From NCBI RefSeq assembly GCF_044647545.1, contig NZ_CP172818.1: DNA of 64,000 nt; one strand, written 5' to 3'. The DNA is from Escherichia coli (GTDB lineage Bacteria; Pseudomonadota; Gammaproteobacteria; Enterobacterales; Enterobacteriaceae). This document shows, one piece after another, positions 27,372-36,932 of this stretch. Made by a program: the position numbers and the translations under genes. Positions within the stretch are counted from its first letter, which is position 1, and each line of letters begins with the position of its first letter. The notes under the pieces were generated by a model. It searched no databases, was not told where the DNA came from, and saw only the letters and a list, made by a program, of their open reading frames with translations.

Positions 27372-27734
27372 GGGGCTGATTCTGGATTCGACGGGATTTG
27401 CGAAACCCAAGGTGCATGCCGAGGGGCGGTTGGCCTCGTAAAAAGCCGCAAAAAATAGTCGCAAACGACGAAAACTACGCTTTAGCAGCTTAATAACCTG
27501 CTTAGAGCCCTCTCTCCCTAGCCTCCGCTCTTAGGACGGGGATCAAGAGAGGTCAAACCCAAAAGAGATCGCGTGGAAGCCCTGCCTGGGGTTGAAGCGT
27601 TAAAACTTAATCAGGCTAGTTTGTTAGTGGCGTGTCCGTCCGCAGCTGGCAAGCGAATGTAAAGACTGACTAAGCATGTAGTACCGAGGACGTAGGAATT
27701 TCGGACGCGGGTTCAACTCCCGCCAGCTCCACCA
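27372..27734 (+). ncRNA. ssrA: tmRNA (transfer-messenger RNA)
   Basis: Begins GGGGCTGATTCTGGATTCGACGGG, contains the tag-reading frame GCAAACGACGAAAACTACGCTTTAGCAGCTTAA (ANDENYALAA-stop), ends GGTTCAACTCCCGCCAGCTCCACCA. Confidence 0.97.
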
Positions 27735-27937: not shown

Positions 27938-29179
27938 ATGGCAAGAAAAACCAAGCCGTTAACTGATACGGAAATCAAAGCCGCCAAACCTAAAGATGCC
28001 GATTACCAGCTTTATGACGGTGACGGGCTTACTCTGTTAATCAAGTCCAGTGGCAGTAAGCTTTGGCAATTCCGTTACTATCGGCCTTTGACCAAGCAGC
28101 GAACCAAACAGAGCTTCGGTGCCTATCCTGCCGTCTCGCTTTCTGATGCACGTAAACTCAGAGCCGAATCTAAAGTTTTATTGGCGAAAGACATTGATCC
28201 TCAGGAACATCAGAAAGAACAGGTGAGGAATTCTCAAGAGGCCAAAACCAATACCTTCTTGTTAGTTGCCGAGCGTTGGTGGAATGTGAAGAAAACCAGC
28301 GTAACAGAGGACTATGCCGACGATATCTGGCGCTCGCTTGAGAGAGATATTTTCCCGGCAATCGGTGATATCAGTATCACTGAGATTAAGGCTCATACTC
28401 TGGTTAAAGCAGTTCAGCCGGTTCAGGCCAGAGGTGCATTAGAGACTGTTCGCCGCCTTTGTCAGCGTATTAACGAAGTCATGATTTATGCGCAGAACAC
28501 AGGCCTGATTGATGCTGTTCCTAGTGTAAATATCGGAAAAGCTTTCGAGAAACCGCAAAAGAAAAACATGCCAAGCATCCGGCCGGATCAACTTCCGCAG
28601 CTAATGCACACCATGCGTACGGCAAGTATCAGCATGTCCACAAGATGCCTGTTCATGTGGCAACTTCTAACCATCACCCGCCCTGCCGAAGCTGCTGAGG
28701 CTCGATGGGATGAGATCGATTTCAATGCTAGCGAATGGAAAATTCCTGCAGCTCGAATGAAGATGAACCGGGACCATACGGTTCCACTATCTGATGGGGC
28801 TCTTGCTATTCTGGAAATGATGAAGCCTCTCAGTGGTGGCCGAGAATTTATCTTTCCTAGCCGTATCAAGCCCAACCAACCAATGAATAGCCAAACAGTG
28901 AATGCAGCACTCAAGCGTGCTGGCTTAGGAGGTGTACTTGTTTCACACGGCTTGCGTTCTATCGCCAGTACGGCACTCAATGAGGAAGGATTTCCACCTG
29001 ATGTCATTGAAGCAGCGCTTGCTCATGTAGACAAAAATGAGGTGCGTCGCGCTTATAACCGCAGTGATTATCTTGAGCAACGTCGTCCGATGATGCAATG
29101 GTGGGCTGATCTCGTAAAAGCAGCAGATAGTGGTAGCATCGTTTTAACTCATTTGAGCAAAATTCGTCTTGTCGGATAA
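27938..29179 (+). CDS. intA: P4-type tyrosine integrase, 413 aa
   Basis: ORF 27902-29179; start taken at MARKTKPLTDTEIKAAKP; C-terminal catalytic region (HGLRSIAST...AHVDKNEVRRAYNRSDYLEQRR). Confidence 0.93.
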   Translation: MARKTKPLTDTEIKAAKPKDADYQLYDGDGLTLLIKSSGSKLWQFRYYRPLTKQRTKQSFGAYPAVSLSDARKLRAESKVLLAKDIDPQEHQKEQVRNSQEAKTNTFLLVAERWWNVKKTSVTEDYADDIWRSLERDIFPAIGDISITEIKAHTLVKAVQPVQARGALETVRRLCQRINEVMIYAQNTGLIDAVPSVNIGKAFEKPQKKNMPSIRPDQLPQLMHTMRTASISMSTRCLFMWQLLTITRPAEAAEARWDEIDFNASEWKIPAARMKMNRDHTVPLSDGALAILEMMKPLSGGREFIFPSRIKPNQPMNSQTVNAALKRAGLGGVLVSHGLRSIASTALNEEGFPPDVIEAALAHVDKNEVRRAYNRSDYLEQRRPMMQWWADLVKAADSGSIVLTHLSKIRLVG

Positions 29180-29422
29180 AATATTTATCAGCCCAGCTCT
29201 CTGGGCTGATATTTCTAAAAGATCGCACTAAATAGCTACGCGGAATAGTGCTCTACTTTCGTTTAGCCCTTTCAGAGGTAAGACATTAGGGCAATTTCAC
29301 TGTATGACTGCGCAGTCATCGAGTCTGTGGGGTGTTGCTCCTTTTGCAACGTATCACTTGTCAATAAATAGAAAGTGTAGATGTATTAGGCGCAGCTATT
29401 TAGTCTATATGGCAAGTAGTAA

Positions 29423-30379
29423 TTATTTACTTCTTTTTTTTCTACGAACAGCGCTATCGAAAGCTTGTTTTACATCTTCATTTTTTAAAGACCATTGATT
29501 TAAAATAGTATCAACCAAAGCATCTTGACTCATTGTTGCTACACGATATTTTTTATTTTGATTATTTATCTCAAACTCTGACATTTGAATAAAATCCCAT
29601 AGCGGTTCGATAAGTTCATTAACTGCTACAACCTTATTTTTCCACCCATCATTCGGAACAGAGTCATTAATTAGCTCAACCAACTTCAGTTGAATGATAT
29701 GGTACACTTCCGCTTTGCTTTTGCCACCCTTCTTTCCTGCACTCCGCCTGACTTCTGATAATTTTTTTTGATTACAAACAGAGATGTTAAACCAAGTCAT
29801 ACCTATGCACTTATCAAATAACTCCGCAGCCCGATGAAATGCTTTAAAGGCAACGTTTTCATTTTCAGACATGATAGATTTTCCCCAGAAAAAAGAGATT
29901 GAGGCGAACATAAGGTGTGCCTTGAAAATGTCATTAATGGAAAATGGCTCGATAACAAGAGGTAAAAACGTTTCCTTGGTAAGGTTTGAACTTAGATTTT
30001 TCCAGCATTCTTGAGCTGGATCATATAATTCAGTGTATTCTTCCTTTATCTCCAGTTGCCCATTCACTGTATGGTGCCTTGTTTCCCATGGTACATCGCA
30101 GGAATATAACCTCACACGAGTACCTATTTTCTCAGAGCTCCAGAATTGCTCTCGCATTCTGCCTAGCTCAATCCGTATTTCCGGATGATCTTCCTCTAGA
30201 ACATCAGTATCCACCGCCCATTCGCATTCGGACATGTGATAGGCGAGATCACGTCGTTTTCTACAAATTTGTTCATAAAAATCATTCAGAGAAATCATAA
30301 AACCACCATAAATCAATGTATTAGAGGTTGTAAAAATTGTATTTTTGGTACATGGGTTTTTTGCCTTAAAGATACCCAT
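29423..30379 (-). CDS. yfjH: Hypothetical protein YfjH, 318 aa, AT-rich, no recognisable motif
   Basis: ORF 29423-30499; start taken at the Met (MGIFKAK...) that avoids overlap with alpA; divergent from alpA. Confidence 0.8.
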   Translation of the reverse strand: MGIFKAKNPCTKNTIFTTSNTLIYGGFMISLNDFYEQICRKRRDLAYHMSECEWAVDTDVLEEDHPEIRIELGRMREQFWSSEKIGTRVRLYSCDVPWETRHHTVNGQLEIKEEYTELYDPAQECWKNLSSNLTKETFLPLVIEPFSINDIFKAHLMFASISFFWGKSIMSENENVAFKAFHRAAELFDKCIGMTWFNISVCNQKKLSEVRRSAGKKGGKSKAEVYHIIQLKLVELINDSVPNDGWKNKVVAVNELIEPLWDFIQMSEFEINNQNKKYRVATMSQDALVDTILNQWSLKNEDVKQAFDSAVRRKKRSK

Positions 30380-30422
30380 TAATCTCTCTGCAACCAAAGT
30401 GAACCAATGAGAGGCAACAAGA

Positions 30423-30635
30423 ATGAACAATCGATCGGCCGTTAGAATACTACGGTTACCAGCGGTTATCCAAAAAACAGGTATGGCACGGGCCACCATC
30501 TATGACTGGTTGAACCCCAAATCACCACGATACGATGCCACCTTTCCCAAAAAGCGAATGCTCGGCGTGAAATCTGTCGGATGGATTGAGGCCGAGATTG
30601 ATGAGTGGTTATCACAACGCTGTAAACTTATTTGA
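30423..30635 (+). CDS. alpA: AlpA-family prophage transcriptional regulator (excisionase-like HTH), 70 aa
   Basis: ORF track; translation MNNRSAVRILRLPAVIQKTGMARATIYDWLN... Confidence 0.92.
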   Translation: MNNRSAVRILRLPAVIQKTGMARATIYDWLNPKSPRYDATFPKKRMLGVKSVGWIEAEIDEWLSQRCKLI

Positions 30636-30763: not shown

Positions 30764-32173
30764 ATGTTCAATGGTCGTCCTTTCCCTGTAGATGCATTTC
30801 CTAAAATTATCAGGAATGCAATTTATGAAGTGGAACAGCATACGCAGGCCCCTCAAGGTTTGATTGCTGCTTCTGCTCTTGGGGTAATTTCTCTTGCCTG
30901 TCAGAACCGGATTGATGTTTGCCGATTGAATAATCTACGTGGCCCGGTATCACTTTTCTTAATGACTCTGGCTGAATCAGGTGAACGTAAGAGTACGGTT
31001 GATAAACTGCTGATGAAGCCATTATATCAACTGGAAGAGGATTTATTTGAAAAATACACCCACGATCTTACCGCATGGAGAAATGATGAAGCAATTTTTA
31101 ATATTGAAAAAAAAGCACTGATGTCAAAACTTAAATCAGATATTCGACGTAACAAAGATCACTTGGCAACAAATGAAAGACTTAAAGAACTACTTACGAC
31201 AAACCCGAAAGCTCCAGTGAGATTCAAATTTTTATTTAACGATGCCACACCTGCAGCTATTAAAGCTCATCTCTGTGGGCACTGGCGATCAGTCGGCATC
31301 ATGTCTGATGAAGCTGGGATCATTTTTAATGGTTACACACTTAACGAGCTGCCGTTTATCAATAAGATGTGGGATGGTTCAATATTTACGGTGGAAAGGA
31401 AAAACGAGCCCGAGAAATTAATTAGAGATGCAAGAATAACACTGTCGCTGATGGTCCAGCCTAATGTTTTTAAGGGTTATATCGACAGGAAAGGAGATAT
31501 GGCAAAGGGGATTGGATTTTTTGCACGGTGCCTCATGTGCCAGCCTGCTTCAACACAAGGTAACAGAAAAATTTCCAACCCAATTTTTTCAAATGAACAT
31601 TTGCCGGTATTTCACCAACGTCTTATGGAAATTGTTAATGAGAGCATCATTAAAATTAATGAAAATAATCGCATCTGCCTCCGATTCTCTGCAGAAGCAG
31701 AAAGACATTGGATCGAATTCTACAACCAGGTCGAGTCAGAAATGAGAATGATTGGCCTTCTTTATGATTTTAAGGATTATGCTTCTAAAATGGCGGAGAA
31801 CATGGCGAGGCTTGCTGCCTTACTTCATTACTTCAGCGGTGATGGAGGCGATATATCTGTTACCGCAGTAAAAGCAGCAGTGGAGATAGTGGCTTGGTAT
31901 ATTGAAGAATACATCCGCTTGTTCTCTAAAAAAGAAGAGTTTTCTTTAGATGTTTCAGAAGCAGATGAGCTTTATTGTTGGATAAAAGATTACTGCACGC
32001 AAAAATTTTCTTCCTGCATCAAGAAAAATATTATCTTACAATTTGGGCCAAATAAATTTAGAAATCGTGACAAGGCAAATGAATTAATTAGAATCTTAAT
32101 TTCACAAAACAAAATATTTATATCTTCATGGGGTAAAACAAAAATAATAAACATAACTCATTGTGTTTTTTGA
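30764..32173 (+). CDS. yfjI: YfjI, DUF3987-type protein (primase-associated family in integrative elements), 469 aa
   Basis: ORF track; length and order match the K-12 island; family assignment by recollection. Confidence 0.85.
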   Translation: MFNGRPFPVDAFPKIIRNAIYEVEQHTQAPQGLIAASALGVISLACQNRIDVCRLNNLRGPVSLFLMTLAESGERKSTVDKLLMKPLYQLEEDLFEKYTHDLTAWRNDEAIFNIEKKALMSKLKSDIRRNKDHLATNERLKELLTTNPKAPVRFKFLFNDATPAAIKAHLCGHWRSVGIMSDEAGIIFNGYTLNELPFINKMWDGSIFTVERKNEPEKLIRDARITLSLMVQPNVFKGYIDRKGDMAKGIGFFARCLMCQPASTQGNRKISNPIFSNEHLPVFHQRLMEIVNESIIKINENNRICLRFSAEAERHWIEFYNQVESEMRMIGLLYDFKDYASKMAENMARLAALLHYFSGDGGDISVTAVKAAVEIVAWYIEEYIRLFSKKEEFSLDVSEADELYCWIKDYCTQKFSSCIKKNIILQFGPNKFRNRDKANELIRILISQNKIFISSWGKTKIINITHCVF

Positions 32174-32325
32174 TTTTAATGACAATCTAAAAGGACTTAA
32201 TTTAAGAGTAAAAACAAACTCTAAACCCAGTTCGGATAAAAGCTTGTCATCTTGATAGGTAATATATAGGTACATAGACACATCAGAACGATCACTTACT
32301 CCAATATCATTGGCCAGGATACTAT

Positions 32326-32952
32326 ATGACATACGATAGTGAATTCGGATCACATGTATCCCTATATCGGGATAGAATCAAACAGGTTATTGATGACTCC
32401 CTAAACGAACATCTTAACTCAATGATTCTACGTGTTGATCTGCATGACCCAATTGATACAGAAAATATGGATAACCCATTCTTTCAACCCAGGGTTGACT
32501 CTGGTGCTATATCTCGCTTTACCAGTGCGTTAAAAGCAAAGCTTAAACATGATAAGCATATTAAAACTCAACGGAAAGACTGGCCTGATAGTCGACATTC
32601 CACTTTACGTTACGCATGGGTCAGAGAATATACCAAAAATAGAAAGCGGCATTACCATTTGATACTGTGTTTCAATCAGGATGCTTATTATCATTTAGGT
32701 GATTACGACTTAAACCGTAACACGTTACGTACAATGATAACGACAGCTTGGTACAGTGCACTTGGCATCCCTATAGATAGCTCGGGGAAGTTAGTTAATT
32801 ACCCGCCAAATGGCAAATACCTTCTCAATCGTAAAAGGGACAACTTTGAGCAGACTTATAGCGATTTGATGAATAGGGTGGATTACATGACCAAAGTAAG
32901 GACTAAAATAGTCGGTGACGGAGACCGTAATTTCGGCTGCAGTCGCGGGTAA
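32326..32952 (+). CDS. yfjJ: YfjJ, YagK/YfjJ family (inovirus Gp2-like replication-initiator family), 208 aa
   Basis: ORF track; family assignment by recollection. Confidence 0.8.
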   Translation: MTYDSEFGSHVSLYRDRIKQVIDDSLNEHLNSMILRVDLHDPIDTENMDNPFFQPRVDSGAISRFTSALKAKLKHDKHIKTQRKDWPDSRHSTLRYAWVREYTKNRKRHYHLILCFNQDAYYHLGDYDLNRNTLRTMITTAWYSALGIPIDSSGKLVNYPPNGKYLLNRKRDNFEQTYSDLMNRVDYMTKVRTKIVGDGDRNFGCSRG

Positions 32953-33129
32953 TTTATTTTTTACAACAATGGCCTTTCTTATGGCTGGAAAGGCCTGATT
33001 TGTTTGTATTAAGATATCGGTAATCTTTTGATGGTTGGAAGCCCGTCCTGGTAGACGACCTAGCCTACCGAAGATGTGAGTTATTCAAAAATGTCGCTTT
33101 CCCGCGTTCCGTAGACAAACGTACCTAAA

Positions 33130-35319
33130 TCAATGTCGTCTAATACCGAGCGCGCGCCTGATAAACATCTGATCAACGTACCCAATCGATCTACTCCAAA
33201 TGTCCTGAGTATCCCGAAGATACTGGCTCAACTCATCCACATCAGCCTCGTCGGAAAATTCCAGCAAGTCTACCAGTCGGTGTAACGTCTGAATGGGAAT
33301 GCCAATCTCTTCTAAGGCATTGACACCTGGTGGTAGATGGAAACTTTCGAACGCCAATTTGACATGTGTGTAATCGACTTTGCTGCGTATACCACGCTTT
33401 ACAGCGTGGTGTTTAACTACATCCTCCATCAAGCTGAGCACCTTAGGTAGGGTATAGCCGAAGGTATTGGTTATGAGCTTCAAATCATTGTTGAGGGCAA
33501 TGGAAAGAGTACGTTTCTCCCCTTCAGAAATCCACTGTCGTGCATAATCGATCTGATTTTTCAGATATTCCGAATAACTTTCAGCACTTAAATAGCCGGC
33601 AAGTTTTGCGATCATGACATCCGTAGGCTTAACAGGGACCCCATTGCGACTGAACGTATGGGGAACCAGTCTGGCAATGATCTTTGCAAAGGTCTTGAGG
33701 AAGTTTGTCGCGGGAGTCCAGTGAAACACTAACGAGGAAAATTCGTTATCGTCCATCATCTCGAACATGCTTTGCAGCATTTCGAACTGCTCGACACGGA
33801 AGTACGAATGCTTCTTCACAAGGTCGATGGAAACACGGTCGTTTATGAAAACCTCATCAAAGCGATCCTGTGAAAACTCGGACAAGTGGTCTGGTTGAAC
33901 GCTGGCTAACAGGTTGATTGGGGTATCAATGCCCTGAATACCGAGCGGAATATCCACCTCTTGATTGAGATTGTCTTCCGGGATTTCCTCCAGGCAAAAG
34001 ATTTTGCCGACGAAGTGAACGCCCATGCGCCCGGCGCGACCTTTGATGTTCCCATGGGTGAATTTGTCAATGCTGCGAGTTCCATCGCGGTTGTCGTAGA
34101 TCACAACGTTCTTAGCGATAGTGTTGACTCCTTCAATGATCGTGGAGGTGCAGAGCAAAAAGCGCAGTTTTCCAGCATTGAATTGGTCGGCAGTGTATTG
34201 CTGCAGTGCCCTCGGTAGCGCGCCAAAATGCAAGCCAATACCGTTTCTAAGGGCGACTGTGTAATCCCAGTCGGCATCGAACTCTTCGCTGACCCAGTCG
34301 ACATGGGGATTCTCAGTCGGAGTGCCATGCCCAAGCCTGATCAGCTCGCGCGCCACCAGGCCCGCAACAGTTGGTGACTTGCAATAAATGATCGTTGCGT
34401 CGACACATGCGTGCGCGATTTCCCCCAGCGCTTTGAGCTTGGCTTTGTCGTCATTCGCTTTGATGCCGAACGTCTTAACATCTAGCGCGACTGTATTGAA
34501 GTCGGTAGAAACGAAAGTATGCGGATATCCAAGTTTTTCGAGACCGCGAATGCTGTTAACGAACGGTCCCGTCAGGTAAAACTGCCTGGAGACCTTAAGC
34601 AGTTTGCTTAACGCAATGTTGAGCTCGATGACTCGTTCGTCTTGATGATCAATGTCCCCGCTTTTCAGTTGTCGGAACGCCAACTTGTAAAACTCGTCAA
34701 TGACGAAGAGGTCAATGTCGACGATGTCGTCACGCTCGTTCACTCGCTCCTGAGTTAACACATAAACAGCCTGATCGGAATGGCACACTTGGGAACTGTG
34801 GTGGATGATCTGATATCGGTCACCGAATCGCTCTTGCAGTCGGCGACGGGTTTCGTCGGCAAGAGCCACGGTTGGAACAACCAGAACAAGCCGTTTCAAA
34901 GTTCCCATGCCGAGCAATGAATCGACGATTGCACTTTTGCCCATGCTTGTAGGTGCACTCAGCACCACGTTTTGACCAGACTTGAGCAGATCGAATATGT
35001 GGAACTGCATTGAGTGGAAAACATAACCATCCGAGAATGGCGTCCGGTATAGCTCAAGCACCCTCAGGTCATCCGGTGTCAGGCTGGTGAACTCCTTTTT
35101 GAGATACGGGAACAAACCTGATTTTCTCACCATATTTTTCAAAATTGTGGTGTGCTCGGAAAACCGCTCGCGCGAATCGAGAGCTCGCACGATCAAGTCC
35201 CGTCCCAAGTCATACGAAACAGGGTTAGACAACAGCTTGTTAACCGCAAACAGATAATTGAACGATGAGAAGTCCTCACCCTGCAGGCTATGTTTCGCCT
35301 GTTCATAGATCTCTGTCAT
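33130..35319 (-). CDS. yfjK: SF2 DEAD/DEAH-box helicase YfjK, 729 aa
   Basis: ORF track; Walker A APTSMGKS, motif II VIDEFY, motif VI GRAGRMG visible in the translation; start overlaps yfjL stop (ATGA). Confidence 0.92.
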   Translation of the reverse strand: MTEIYEQAKHSLQGEDFSSFNYLFAVNKLLSNPVSYDLGRDLIVRALDSRERFSEHTTILKNMVRKSGLFPYLKKEFTSLTPDDLRVLELYRTPFSDGYVFHSMQFHIFDLLKSGQNVVLSAPTSMGKSAIVDSLLGMGTLKRLVLVVPTVALADETRRRLQERFGDRYQIIHHSSQVCHSDQAVYVLTQERVNERDDIVDIDLFVIDEFYKLAFRQLKSGDIDHQDERVIELNIALSKLLKVSRQFYLTGPFVNSIRGLEKLGYPHTFVSTDFNTVALDVKTFGIKANDDKAKLKALGEIAHACVDATIIYCKSPTVAGLVARELIRLGHGTPTENPHVDWVSEEFDADWDYTVALRNGIGLHFGALPRALQQYTADQFNAGKLRFLLCTSTIIEGVNTIAKNVVIYDNRDGTRSIDKFTHGNIKGRAGRMGVHFVGKIFCLEEIPEDNLNQEVDIPLGIQGIDTPINLLASVQPDHLSEFSQDRFDEVFINDRVSIDLVKKHSYFRVEQFEMLQSMFEMMDDNEFSSLVFHWTPATNFLKTFAKIIARLVPHTFSRNGVPVKPTDVMIAKLAGYLSAESYSEYLKNQIDYARQWISEGEKRTLSIALNNDLKLITNTFGYTLPKVLSLMEDVVKHHAVKRGIRSKVDYTHVKLAFESFHLPPGVNALEEIGIPIQTLHRLVDLLEFSDEADVDELSQYLRDTQDIWSRSIGYVDQMFIRRALGIRRH

Positions 35320-36932
35320 ACGACCTCTCTCACCTTCTCATCAACTAATTGGGTTAACCGCTCAAGACTCGGGGCTGGATAAATGAATACGTGGATGCAA
35401 AGATTCGCAAACGGCGAATCCTCGATGAGGTCAGCCGCGAATTTTTCGAACAGCACCGCTGTTTCTTTCTCCAGGTCATCCTCGAACCCCGGCGTTTCAG
35501 GCTCGGTTAGTAGATTAGAGTCGTAGCCCACGAACAGAACAAACGTGAAACGATCGAGGTGAGCATCGAAAGGTTGGCTGCCATCAAGAATTTCGTCAAT
35601 GTCGTGGCGAAGCAGGTAGTTATCGTCTTTAATGTCGAGGATTTTTTTGCGCGCGGTATCGATGCAATCCGAAATGTCCTCGTACAACTGATCCCGTATC
35701 TCCGGCAATCTGACGGCAATGTTAATATCAGTCACCAACTCGCTGAAGCCAATCCAAAGCTGATCACCTTCTGGATCGCGGCGAACGATATGCACGTTTT
35801 CAAGAATTTTTTCGGCCCCTGCTTTTTCCACGTATAGCATGCAAGGAATAGGCTGGCTTTCGTGGTGCTGCCGGATCGTTGCGTGCAACAGCACTCGACC
35901 CAAAAATTCGCTGACGTCATGGAGCGATTTGAAGACGGAATTCTTTAGTCGTTCTCGCTTTTCAATGAATGTCAGTTTATGAATATCAGACATTTCTTTT
36001 GGTCGGAGAAAAACCTCATCCAACCATTGACAGACGTTATCCGCGATGTGCTTGTAGCGGTATTTCTTAAGTGAGTACTGCTGATGTAGAACCTGGCCTT
36101 TACGCTTAGCGCAGACCGAAGCCATAGGCGCTCTAAATGGCGTAAGGATGTGGGGTAAGTCCCGTTTGACGTAGATTTTGCGGCCTGACCGAGATTGGTC
36201 ATCTTCGACACGCTGCTTGAACCACTCAAGTAGGTCTGGTCGTAAGTAGGACTTGTCATCAGCACTGTGAATGCGTCGAGAATGCTCGCCCTTGCGCGTC
36301 ACAGTATCAAGGATGCGGCACCAAATGTCTTCGGCGACGGTTTCGGAACTGAGAATGACCCCATGTAGATCTTGGGAGGCCAGCCGTATGTTCTTGATCC
36401 CTAGAAGTTCCAGTTCGCGCAGGGATGAAAACACTTCCCATGTAGCCGCATCGATCCAATCTGAAACGCTTATACCTGAGTCTGTTAAAAAATTGTCTGT
36501 GCGTTTGTTGAGGTCATCGATGAGTTCCTGTCGACCTGGCTTATCTAGTCGGGCGTTTGGGCTGATCGTCAAGTACTCAAGGGTTTTGTTGACCTTTTCC
36601 TCTGTGACGATGGAGTACCTACGTCCAAGGGACAGGTCAGACTCACACTGCATTGATTTGTGCAAAATTGAACTGCAGGGGATCGTCTTTTTATCAGCAC
36701 CTTTTGAATTCTGAACGATGTCCGAAATGTTCCAACGTGTTTTGCCGGTGCTTTTTACCTGAACGAAGTCGATGTATCCATCAGATACAATGTCGATATC
36801 GTCTGTGACCTCGCAGCGCACACTGCGGATAGTCTTGTCACGAAGCATTCGGGTGACATGGTAAGCGGCTACGCAGTCCTGAAATAAGAAACCGTGCTTG
36901 GCGGCTACTCCGCCTGAATCGTTCGACTCCAT
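35316..36932 (-). CDS. yfjL: YfjL, 538 aa, putative nuclease-like N-terminal domain plus large C-terminal domain of unknown function
   Basis: ORF track; N-terminal GFLFQD...EVTDDIDIV...DFVQVKS resembles a PD-(D/E)xK/QxK core; translationally coupled to yfjK. Confidence 0.88.
   Translation of the reverse strand: MESNDSGGVAAKHGFLFQDCVAAYHVTRMLRDKTIRSVRCEVTDDIDIVSDGYIDFVQVKSTGKTRWNISDIVQNSKGADKKTIPCSSILHKSMQCESDLSLGRRYSIVTEEKVNKTLEYLTISPNARLDKPGRQELIDDLNKRTDNFLTDSGISVSDWIDAATWEVFSSLRELELLGIKNIRLASQDLHGVILSSETVAEDIWCRILDTVTRKGEHSRRIHSADDKSYLRPDLLEWFKQRVEDDQSRSGRKIYVKRDLPHILTPFRAPMASVCAKRKGQVLHQQYSLKKYRYKHIADNVCQWLDEVFLRPKEMSDIHKLTFIEKRERLKNSVFKSLHDVSEFLGRVLLHATIRQHHESQPIPCMLYVEKAGAEKILENVHIVRRDPEGDQLWIGFSELVTDINIAVRLPEIRDQLYEDISDCIDTARKKILDIKDDNYLLRHDIDEILDGSQPFDAHLDRFTFVLFVGYDSNLLTEPETPGFEDDLEKETAVLFEKFAADLIEDSPFANLCIHVFIYPAPSLERLTQLVDEKVREVV

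Follow-up and report, generated by a model that had tools for sequence, protein, structure and literature searches.

yfjH is a conserved neighbour of alpA in CP4-57-type islands and a candidate for a part in their control

The yfjH locus and its gene model

The 64,000-nucleotide stretch of Escherichia coli DNA analysed here (contig NZ_CP172818.1 of assembly GCF_044647545.1; the whole stretch is called the window below) covers the ssrA region of E. coli K-12 and, after it, the cryptic element CP4-57. The genes of this element considered here, intA, yfjH, alpA, yfjI and yfjJ, are 100% identical to those in K-12 genomes. The subject of the analysis is yfjH, which the 2024 y-ome survey still lists as uncharacterised (PMC11551758). 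It is convergent with intA and divergent from alpA. The genes and features of this part of the window are:

27372–27734: ssrA (tmRNA), the integration site of CP4-57
27938–29179, plus strand: intA, encoding the island's P4-type tyrosine integrase; integration is at ssrA
29423–30298, minus strand: conserved coding sequence of yfjH, 291 aa plus stop, with the probable start at M28 (ATG ending at 30298)
30299–30379, minus strand: annotated 27-codon N-terminal extension of yfjH, overlapping the conserved control region and holding a Shine-Dalgarno-like GGTGG and a conserved TTTACA hexamer
30299–30422, no strand: divergent yfjH–alpA control region, 124 bp, GC 0.34, containing the alpA leader as well as an A/T tract, TGTAAAAA..TTTTTGGTA, that is conserved
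30392–30408, plus strand: direct repeat AACCAA-N4-AACCAA, directly 5' of the alpA Shine-Dalgarno sequence and conserved in relatives
30423–30635, plus strand: alpA, 70 aa, AlpA/excisionase-type regulator, the constant divergent neighbour of the YfjH family
30764–32952, plus strand: yfjI and yfjJ, a DUF3987 primase/helicase-like protein and an inovirus Gp2-like Rep, forming the backbone's replication part, syntenic with yfjH–alpA in close relatives

An earlier note on this DNA, made from the letters alone, described a 318-aa open reading frame (ORF) on the strand opposite to intA and divergent from alpA. The frame is there: it occupies 29423–30379 on the minus strand (MGIFKAK...), is nested in a 358-aa frame reaching 30499, and has exactly the coordinates of the RefSeq annotation of yfjH in K-12. 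However, this gene model is probably too long, the conserved protein being 291 aa, not 318. PHROG 19089 aligns to residues 28–318 (profile positions 1–291 of 292, E = 1.4e-112), and most YfjH homologues are 291–292 aa and begin at the residue equivalent to M28. The frame 5' of the equivalent ATG is closed by stop codons in E. coli MS 115-1, in Yersinia and in L012, one of the islands compared below. Close alleles have an in-frame TAA six codons upstream of this ATG, where K-12 has ACA, and every one of them has a Shine-Dalgarno-like GGTGG or GAGG ahead of it. Judged from these alignments, the 27-codon extension is probably not translated.

A start at M28 makes the divergent spacer between yfjH and alpA 124 bp long. 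The common control region proposed in the earlier note is therefore retained, though not at the 43 bp (30380–30422) that was given for it. A leaderless yfjH mRNA, suggested by a TTTACA-N18-TATGGT pair ending 7 nt before the M28 ATG, was considered and rejected: a conserved Shine-Dalgarno-like motif lies between them, and the putative −10 element of one relative (L014) includes the start codon.

The GC content of yfjH is 0.374 (0.336 at third codon positions), lower than that of intA (0.476 and 0.449) or smpB (0.520 and 0.584). The contrast with the flanks that was pointed out before is thus real for these genes. It does not extend to the rest of the element – yfjI (0.379), yfjJ (0.404) and the yfjH–alpA spacer (0.339) are equally AT-rich, and in composition yfjH does not stand apart from the backbone.

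Position of the YfjH family across islands

Twenty distinct loci with a YfjH-family gene were compared after re-annotation with our own ORF calls and hidden Markov models (HMMs). They came from E. coli, Citrobacter, Mangrovibacter, Siccibacter, Franconibacter, Hafnia, Photorhabdus, Yersinia, Serratia and metagenomes. The family member is directly divergent from alpA, 105–204 bp away, in 17 of the loci; in two others (L011 and L029) an insertion sequence (IS) or a small ORF has come between the two genes. Position and orientation relative to alpA are therefore the same in 19 of the 20. The remaining locus (L017) is distant: here the yfjH-like gene comes downstream of int on the same strand, at a distance of 46 bp, in a 3-kb contig without a recognisable alpA. 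Among the 18 loci that have int in range (all but L009 and L016), the yfjH-like gene is convergent with int in 17 and co-directional with it in L017 alone.

The pairing of yfjH with alpA is kept in islands that differ in much else. It is found with integrases that are only 33–34% identical, at a non-ssrA site (L010 and L014), where a UCP007319/resolvase module replaces the DUF3987 replication gene (L009, L011 and L012), and where cargo has entered the interval from int to the 3' end of the yfjH-like gene (L012, L013 and L022). yfjH is a conserved backbone gene coupled to alpA in CP4-57-type islands. Exchangeable cargo would appear as unrelated genes in the same slot of related elements, and among the 20 loci yfjH does not behave in this way. 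The earlier note had suggested a survey of the interval between int and alpA, with variable content as the mark of a hotspot and one gene held in one position as counting, together with a housekeeping function and no phage phenotype, against its idea; the survey found the positional part of the latter.

Some ssrA islands have this integrase yet lack the YfjH family. These are the islands of E. coli 537-20 and CE0026a, which have other genes, and that of MS 124-1, which is degraded. In E. coli 537-20 (L003, 10508–12673) an alpA of a more divergent type is found in an inverted alpA–DUF3987–Gp2 module, divergent from the gene for a 639-aa protein across a gap of 24 bp. This protein was tried as a relative of YfjH and rejected, with an hhalign probability of 0.2% and no match to any PHROG family or to the YfjH profile. 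The comparison suggests that different alpA types have different divergent partners.

In the locus from Photorhabdus khanii (L025, 7837–9320) the yfjH-family gene is in pieces, as three ORFs, and has an internal gap of about 0.6 kb; the adjoining alpA and int are intact. This broken copy could be an informative natural knockout.

The exchangeable slot and its cargo

The exchangeable slot of these islands is on the 3' side of yfjH, between yfjH and int, with yfjH as its inner boundary and not its content. The proposal that a variable cargo slot adjoins the integrase is thus upheld as to the slot, which does tolerate insertions there, and is not upheld as to yfjH. The spacer between int and yfjH is 58–62 bp in most close relatives and 243 bp in K-12, where it consists of a conserved hairpin terminator plus an element resembling a miniature inverted-repeat transposable element (MITE). 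The features of the slot, and the defence genes on the other side of the backbone, are:

29186–29211, no strand: bidirectional hairpin terminator directly after the intA stop codon, common to the convergent intA and yfjH and kept in relatives with compensatory stem changes
29227–29404, no strand: MITE-like element, 178 bp, with 34-nt imperfect terminal inverted repeats (29227–29260 and 29371–29404), in the 3' untranslated region of yfjH
33130–36932, minus strand: yfjK/yfjL, matching the type I Hachiman proteins HamB (E = 4e-220) and HamA (E = 3e-266), directly after yfjJ

The terminator is of the kind for which the spacer had been thought long enough. Copies of the MITE-like element with about 72% identity were found in 86 other E. 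coli records, in unannotated DNA, including plasmid pE148-2 and O157:H7 strain EC10; the element has no match in Rfam. A 175-nt repeat in the spacer, which in O157 EC10 is found upstream of an ISAs1-like transposase, was considered as an end of ISEc1. This was rejected, as the repeat lies outside the IS, is not matched by the H-repeats of K-12 and has terminal inverted repeats of its own.

Larger insertions were found in relatives. L012 and L013 have a type II CBASS system (patatin, CD-NTase, E1-like ThiF and JAB) between int and the yfjH-like gene, and L022 has about 1.5 kb inserted at the same place. In L016 and L009 a type I restriction-modification system and other genes are found downstream of the yfjH-like gene. 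Besides CBASS, the ssrA island L012 (8080–12443 and 1–3002; also L013) encodes a QatABCD-like set (KAP NTPase, QatB, QueC and TatD) beyond yfjJ, so two cargo slots flank the backbone. On their profile matches, yfjK/yfjL are the recognisable defence cargo of the K-12 element, outside its backbone.

The YfjH protein and its evolution

YfjH has no match in Pfam, either alone or with all 77 aligned family members, none to a PADLOC v2 family at E ≤ 1, and none above noise in NCBIfam (June 2026 release, including its curated anti-phage models). The adjoining yfjK/yfjL, which match HamB and HamA, served as a positive control. A sequence-profile search of the PDB gave nothing significant, with a best E value of 0.32, to a designed protein. 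There is no transmembrane segment (the top 19-residue Kyte-Doolittle mean is 1.07), and no catalytic constellation, effector-type domain or defence signature was found with Pfam, PADLOC and NCBIfam or among the conserved residues. These results agree with the first inspection of the translation, in which no catalytic motif or transmembrane segment was recognised.

The AlphaFold model of YfjH had a pLDDT of 70 when made with 14 close sequences, and of 93.2 (pTM 0.80) with the 77 family members. It is elongated and helical, with N-terminal helices, a 67-residue helix (147–213) and a C-terminal helix cluster with a short hairpin; a beta-hairpin insert at about residues 55–91 is confined to the close subfamily, with an alignment occupancy of about 0.2. 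The only Foldseek matches at E ≤ 0.001 were unannotated proteins of the same family. Structure prediction with fold comparison, one of the checks proposed in the earlier note, thus gave a confident model without annotated structural relatives.

The two ends of the protein are different in character. The N-terminal 120 residues are acidic (isoelectric point, pI, of 4.8) and variable in sequence, whereas residues 181–291 are basic (pI 9.5) and conserved. Nearly all of the residues conserved across the family are in this second part: G191, G192, K195, A196, L209, P215, G218, W219, K220, K222, A225, F236, W269, A279 and F280. The motif of the C-terminal part is A-x-KGG-x-x-KA ... P-x-x-GWK-x-K ... 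WS-x-x-D-x-x-VK-x-AF. The pattern of charge and conservation reads as a binding-type signature without a catalytic constellation.

The K-12 allele of yfjH (at least 99% identity) was found in 363 of 5426 complete E. coli genomes, which by strain name are essentially K-12 derivatives. A 90%-clustered protein database contained 19 relatives. A family-HMM search of 1.84 billion representatives gave 98 proteins at E ≤ 0.001 and 34 at E ≤ 1e-10, and many of the 98 cover the C-terminal half only (profile positions about 110–290). Named sources are Escherichia, Salmonella, Klebsiella, Kluyvera, Serratia, Yersinia and Raoultella. A scan of species-representative genomes added Citrobacter, Mangrovibacter, Siccibacter, Franconibacter, Hafnia and Photorhabdus (close alignment, 7 loci), and Foldseek added a few proteins from Aeromonas, Pseudomonas and Burkholderiales. 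No match was found by tblastn in 50,697 phage and 72,556 plasmid records, which indicates that the family lives in chromosomal islands.

YfjH is the fastest-diverging protein of the left arm. Between K-12 and MS 115-1, amino acid identity is 94% for IntA, 90% for AlpA, 75% for YfjI and 59% for YfjH; across 12 loci it is 24–60% for YfjH versus 64–91% for AlpA. The ratio of non-synonymous to synonymous substitution rates (dN/dS) of yfjH is 0.15–0.28, with dS saturated (above 1.5), which is purifying selection. Its dN is about 0.31, versus 0.03–0.05 for intA and alpA, and the dS of intA is about 0.4. The low dN/dS together with saturated dS means that the yfjH copies are old functional alleles in a mosaic, not a decaying ORF. 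Divergence is uneven along the protein – in close alleles the C-terminal 110 residues are 63–65% identical, versus 53–57% for the N-terminal 180, and distant members align in the C-terminal half only.

The yfjH–alpA control region

The DNA of the control region is 65–78% identical to that of relatives in which YfjH itself is at 30–60% identity. The AACCAA-N4-AACCAA repeat occurs once in the window, versus 0.06 occurrences expected by chance, and is a candidate protein-binding site. It was also considered as the operator of a regulon, and this was rejected, there being no further copy in the window.

Parts of the A/T tract (GTTGTAAAAATTGTATTTTTGGTACAT, 30327–30353) have 82–88% complementary copies at 32628–32644, in yfjJ, and at 32951–32967, just after yfjJ. 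Such copies may have arisen by chance in AT-rich DNA, or they may be binding sites common to these places.

Published data on yfjH

RNA polymerase alone transcribes yfjH and the downstream spacer in vitro, with an approximately twofold preference for sigma-S (PMC3141248), a result that fits expression of yfjH in the resting state. Rapid acid shift induces yfjH approximately twofold (PMC2270276). Overexpressed yfjH is among several prophage-gene "blockers" of the retron-Sen2 toxin RcaT (bioRxiv 10.1101/2020.06.22.160242). No phage phenotype of yfjH is reported in the searchable literature.

In AlpA-type Gram-negative islands, AlpA is the activator or excision switch, and the existence of an element-encoded repressor has been stated to be unclear (PMC6092414). 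In the CP4So element of Shewanella, host H-NS silences the alpA promoter (PMC8034616). The Vibrio PICMI satellites have a gene in the interval from int to alpA, iolg/icg, to which no function is assigned and which is reported to be necessary for excision; they also have a DUF3987 primase (PMC10803314).

Possible roles of YfjH

The reading that we favour, tentatively and at somewhat short of an even chance, is that YfjH is a switch or maintenance factor acting at the yfjH–alpA control region. It is based on the position of the gene by alpA, selection on the protein, the conserved control region with its repeat, the lack of an enzymatic, transmembrane or defence signature, the confident structure model and transcription in vitro. 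YfjH would be made from the quiescent island and act at the alpA switch, where it would most likely hold alpA, and hence excision and replication, in check, or else set the threshold of the switch. Output would be through the surface of the conserved basic C-terminal part, which would bind either control-region DNA or AlpA/Int, and the fast-diverging N-terminal part would serve as an allele-specific input surface. The mechanism is proposed, not demonstrated.

Several observations weigh against this role. In EcCICFT073, an experimentally characterised, AlpA-controlled element of E. coli CFT073 (L032, 12931–14714), int and the gene for a 62-aa AlpA-type regulator are co-directional, 365 bp apart with no gene between them, and two small minus-strand genes follow alpA, so the layout of the switch differs from that of CP4-57. 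Taken with the silencing of CP4So by H-NS, this layout indicates that an AlpA switch does not need a partner encoded by the element. The gene is convergent with int, whereas stl, the repressor gene of the SaPIs, is co-oriented with it. Neither a helix-turn-helix nor any other DNA-binding fold was recognised in the sequence or the model of YfjH. The blocking of RcaT, the sole reported phenotype of yfjH, points elsewhere or is non-specific. Finally, the identity of YfjH follows that of AlpA (r = 0.94) and not, among ssrA-type elements, that of IntA (r = 0.29), which fits a single module, though physical linkage alone may explain it.

A role beside the integrase instead of at the switch would make YfjH a recombination accessory factor, working with IntA and AlpA in an excision or integration complex, as has been proposed for iolg/icg. 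The slot between int and alpA is the same, PICMIs also carry a DUF3987 primase, the yfjH-like gene of L017 follows int closely on its own strand, and the basic C-terminal part of YfjH could bind att DNA. We nevertheless consider this unlikely. The gene is tied to alpA, not to int, in 19 of the 20 loci, is convergent with int in all but one of those with int in range, and stays by alpA though 1.5–4.8 kb of cargo separates it from int. No Vibrionaceae sequence is among the 98 HMM matches or the Foldseek matches, and the iolg genes, which overlap int, make up 13 unrelated families. The defence idea of the earlier note, in its present form, is that YfjH is a single-gene exclusion, abortive-infection or counter-defence factor made from the resting island and sited as rexAB is by cI in lambda. 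Its rapid divergence relative to AlpA would suit such a factor, as would transcription without an activator, a position adjoining the cargo hotspot and the blocking of RcaT, which is shared with other prophage genes. There is no specific support for a defence role in the searches of PADLOC v2 and NCBIfam, and YfjH has neither an effector-type domain nor a transmembrane segment or catalytic constellation; one family keeps the same place while the known defence systems beside it change, and that family is absent from the phage and plasmid records searched. A defence role is thus rather improbable.

It is very improbable that yfjH is a functionless ORF of a cryptic element, retained by linkage only. 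CP4-57 is defective, the Photorhabdus copy is broken, and the K-12 allele is essentially limited to K-12 lineages, all copies being at least 99% identical. However, the selection analysis contradicts decay, intact full-length copies are found in at least nine genera, and the family holds enough coevolution signal for a model with a pLDDT of 93.

The switch or maintenance role can also be put in a bolder and more specific form, which we regard as doubtful. The YfjH family would be the element-encoded master regulator of the CP4-57-type AlpA islands of Enterobacterales, with a previously undescribed fold that binds nucleic acid or AlpA. Through its conserved basic C-terminal part YfjH would keep the alpA promoter, or AlpA itself, off, and the diversifying N-terminal surface would receive the inducing signal, for example a phage protein. 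If true, YfjH would be the functional counterpart of SaPI Stl in Gram-negative islands that carry defence systems.

Much of the mobile defence repertoire of enterobacteria resides in CP4-57-type ssrA islands: K-12 has Hachiman and RnlAB there, and its relatives have CBASS, Qat and restriction-modification systems. The silencing and induction of these islands are poorly understood. yfjH is a concrete candidate for the missing control component. The probable M28 start would correct the model of a K-12 y-gene, and the move of the true cargo slot to the spacer between int and yfjH is useful for the mining of defence islands. Should the function of yfjH prove ordinary, the gain would still be a better map of backbone versus cargo in CP4-57-type islands.

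Comparison with known systems

A close parallel in layout is that of Stl/Rpr in the SaPIs, the Gram-positive phage-inducible islands. There, too, int and optional accessory genes are followed by a regulator divergent from the excision/replication operon over a short control region (PMC6092414). The accessory DNA found between int and the yfjH-like gene (CBASS in L012/L013, 1.5 kb in L022 and the MITE-like element in K-12) has the corresponding place, and in both systems a gene with diverse alleles has conserved neighbours. Stl/Rpr has no relation to YfjH in sequence or fold, the helix-turn-helix was not detected in YfjH, the orientation relative to int is the opposite one, and the divergent partner is AlpA, not Str/Xis. 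The likeness is one of layout; repression and its relief by a phage protein are features of Stl/Rpr and would apply to YfjH only by analogy.

The PICMI gene iolg/icg is like yfjH in its place in the int–alpA interval of a small island with a DUF3987 primase (PMC10803314). It differs in that it is on the strand of int, with which it overlaps, while in K-12 yfjH and int are on different strands with 243 bp between them, and yfjH is tied to alpA. The two were compared by layout and description, and iolg, unlike yfjH, is not one family; no Vibrionaceae homologue of YfjH was among the matches.

EcCICFT073, a Gram-negative PICI controlled by AlpA, shares with CP4-57 a P4-type integrase, an AlpA activator/excision switch and a replication module of the primase type. 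It has no member of the YfjH family, and its int and alpA are adjacent and co-directional. Unlike PICIs of this type, CP4-57-type islands are without packaging and capsid genes. The nearest catalogued relative of YfjH itself is PHROG 19089, the whole profile of which is matched by residues 28–318, while in distant homologues the match is to its C-terminal half. PHROG 19089 is no more than a cluster of sequences, without an attached function, Pfam family or solved structure.

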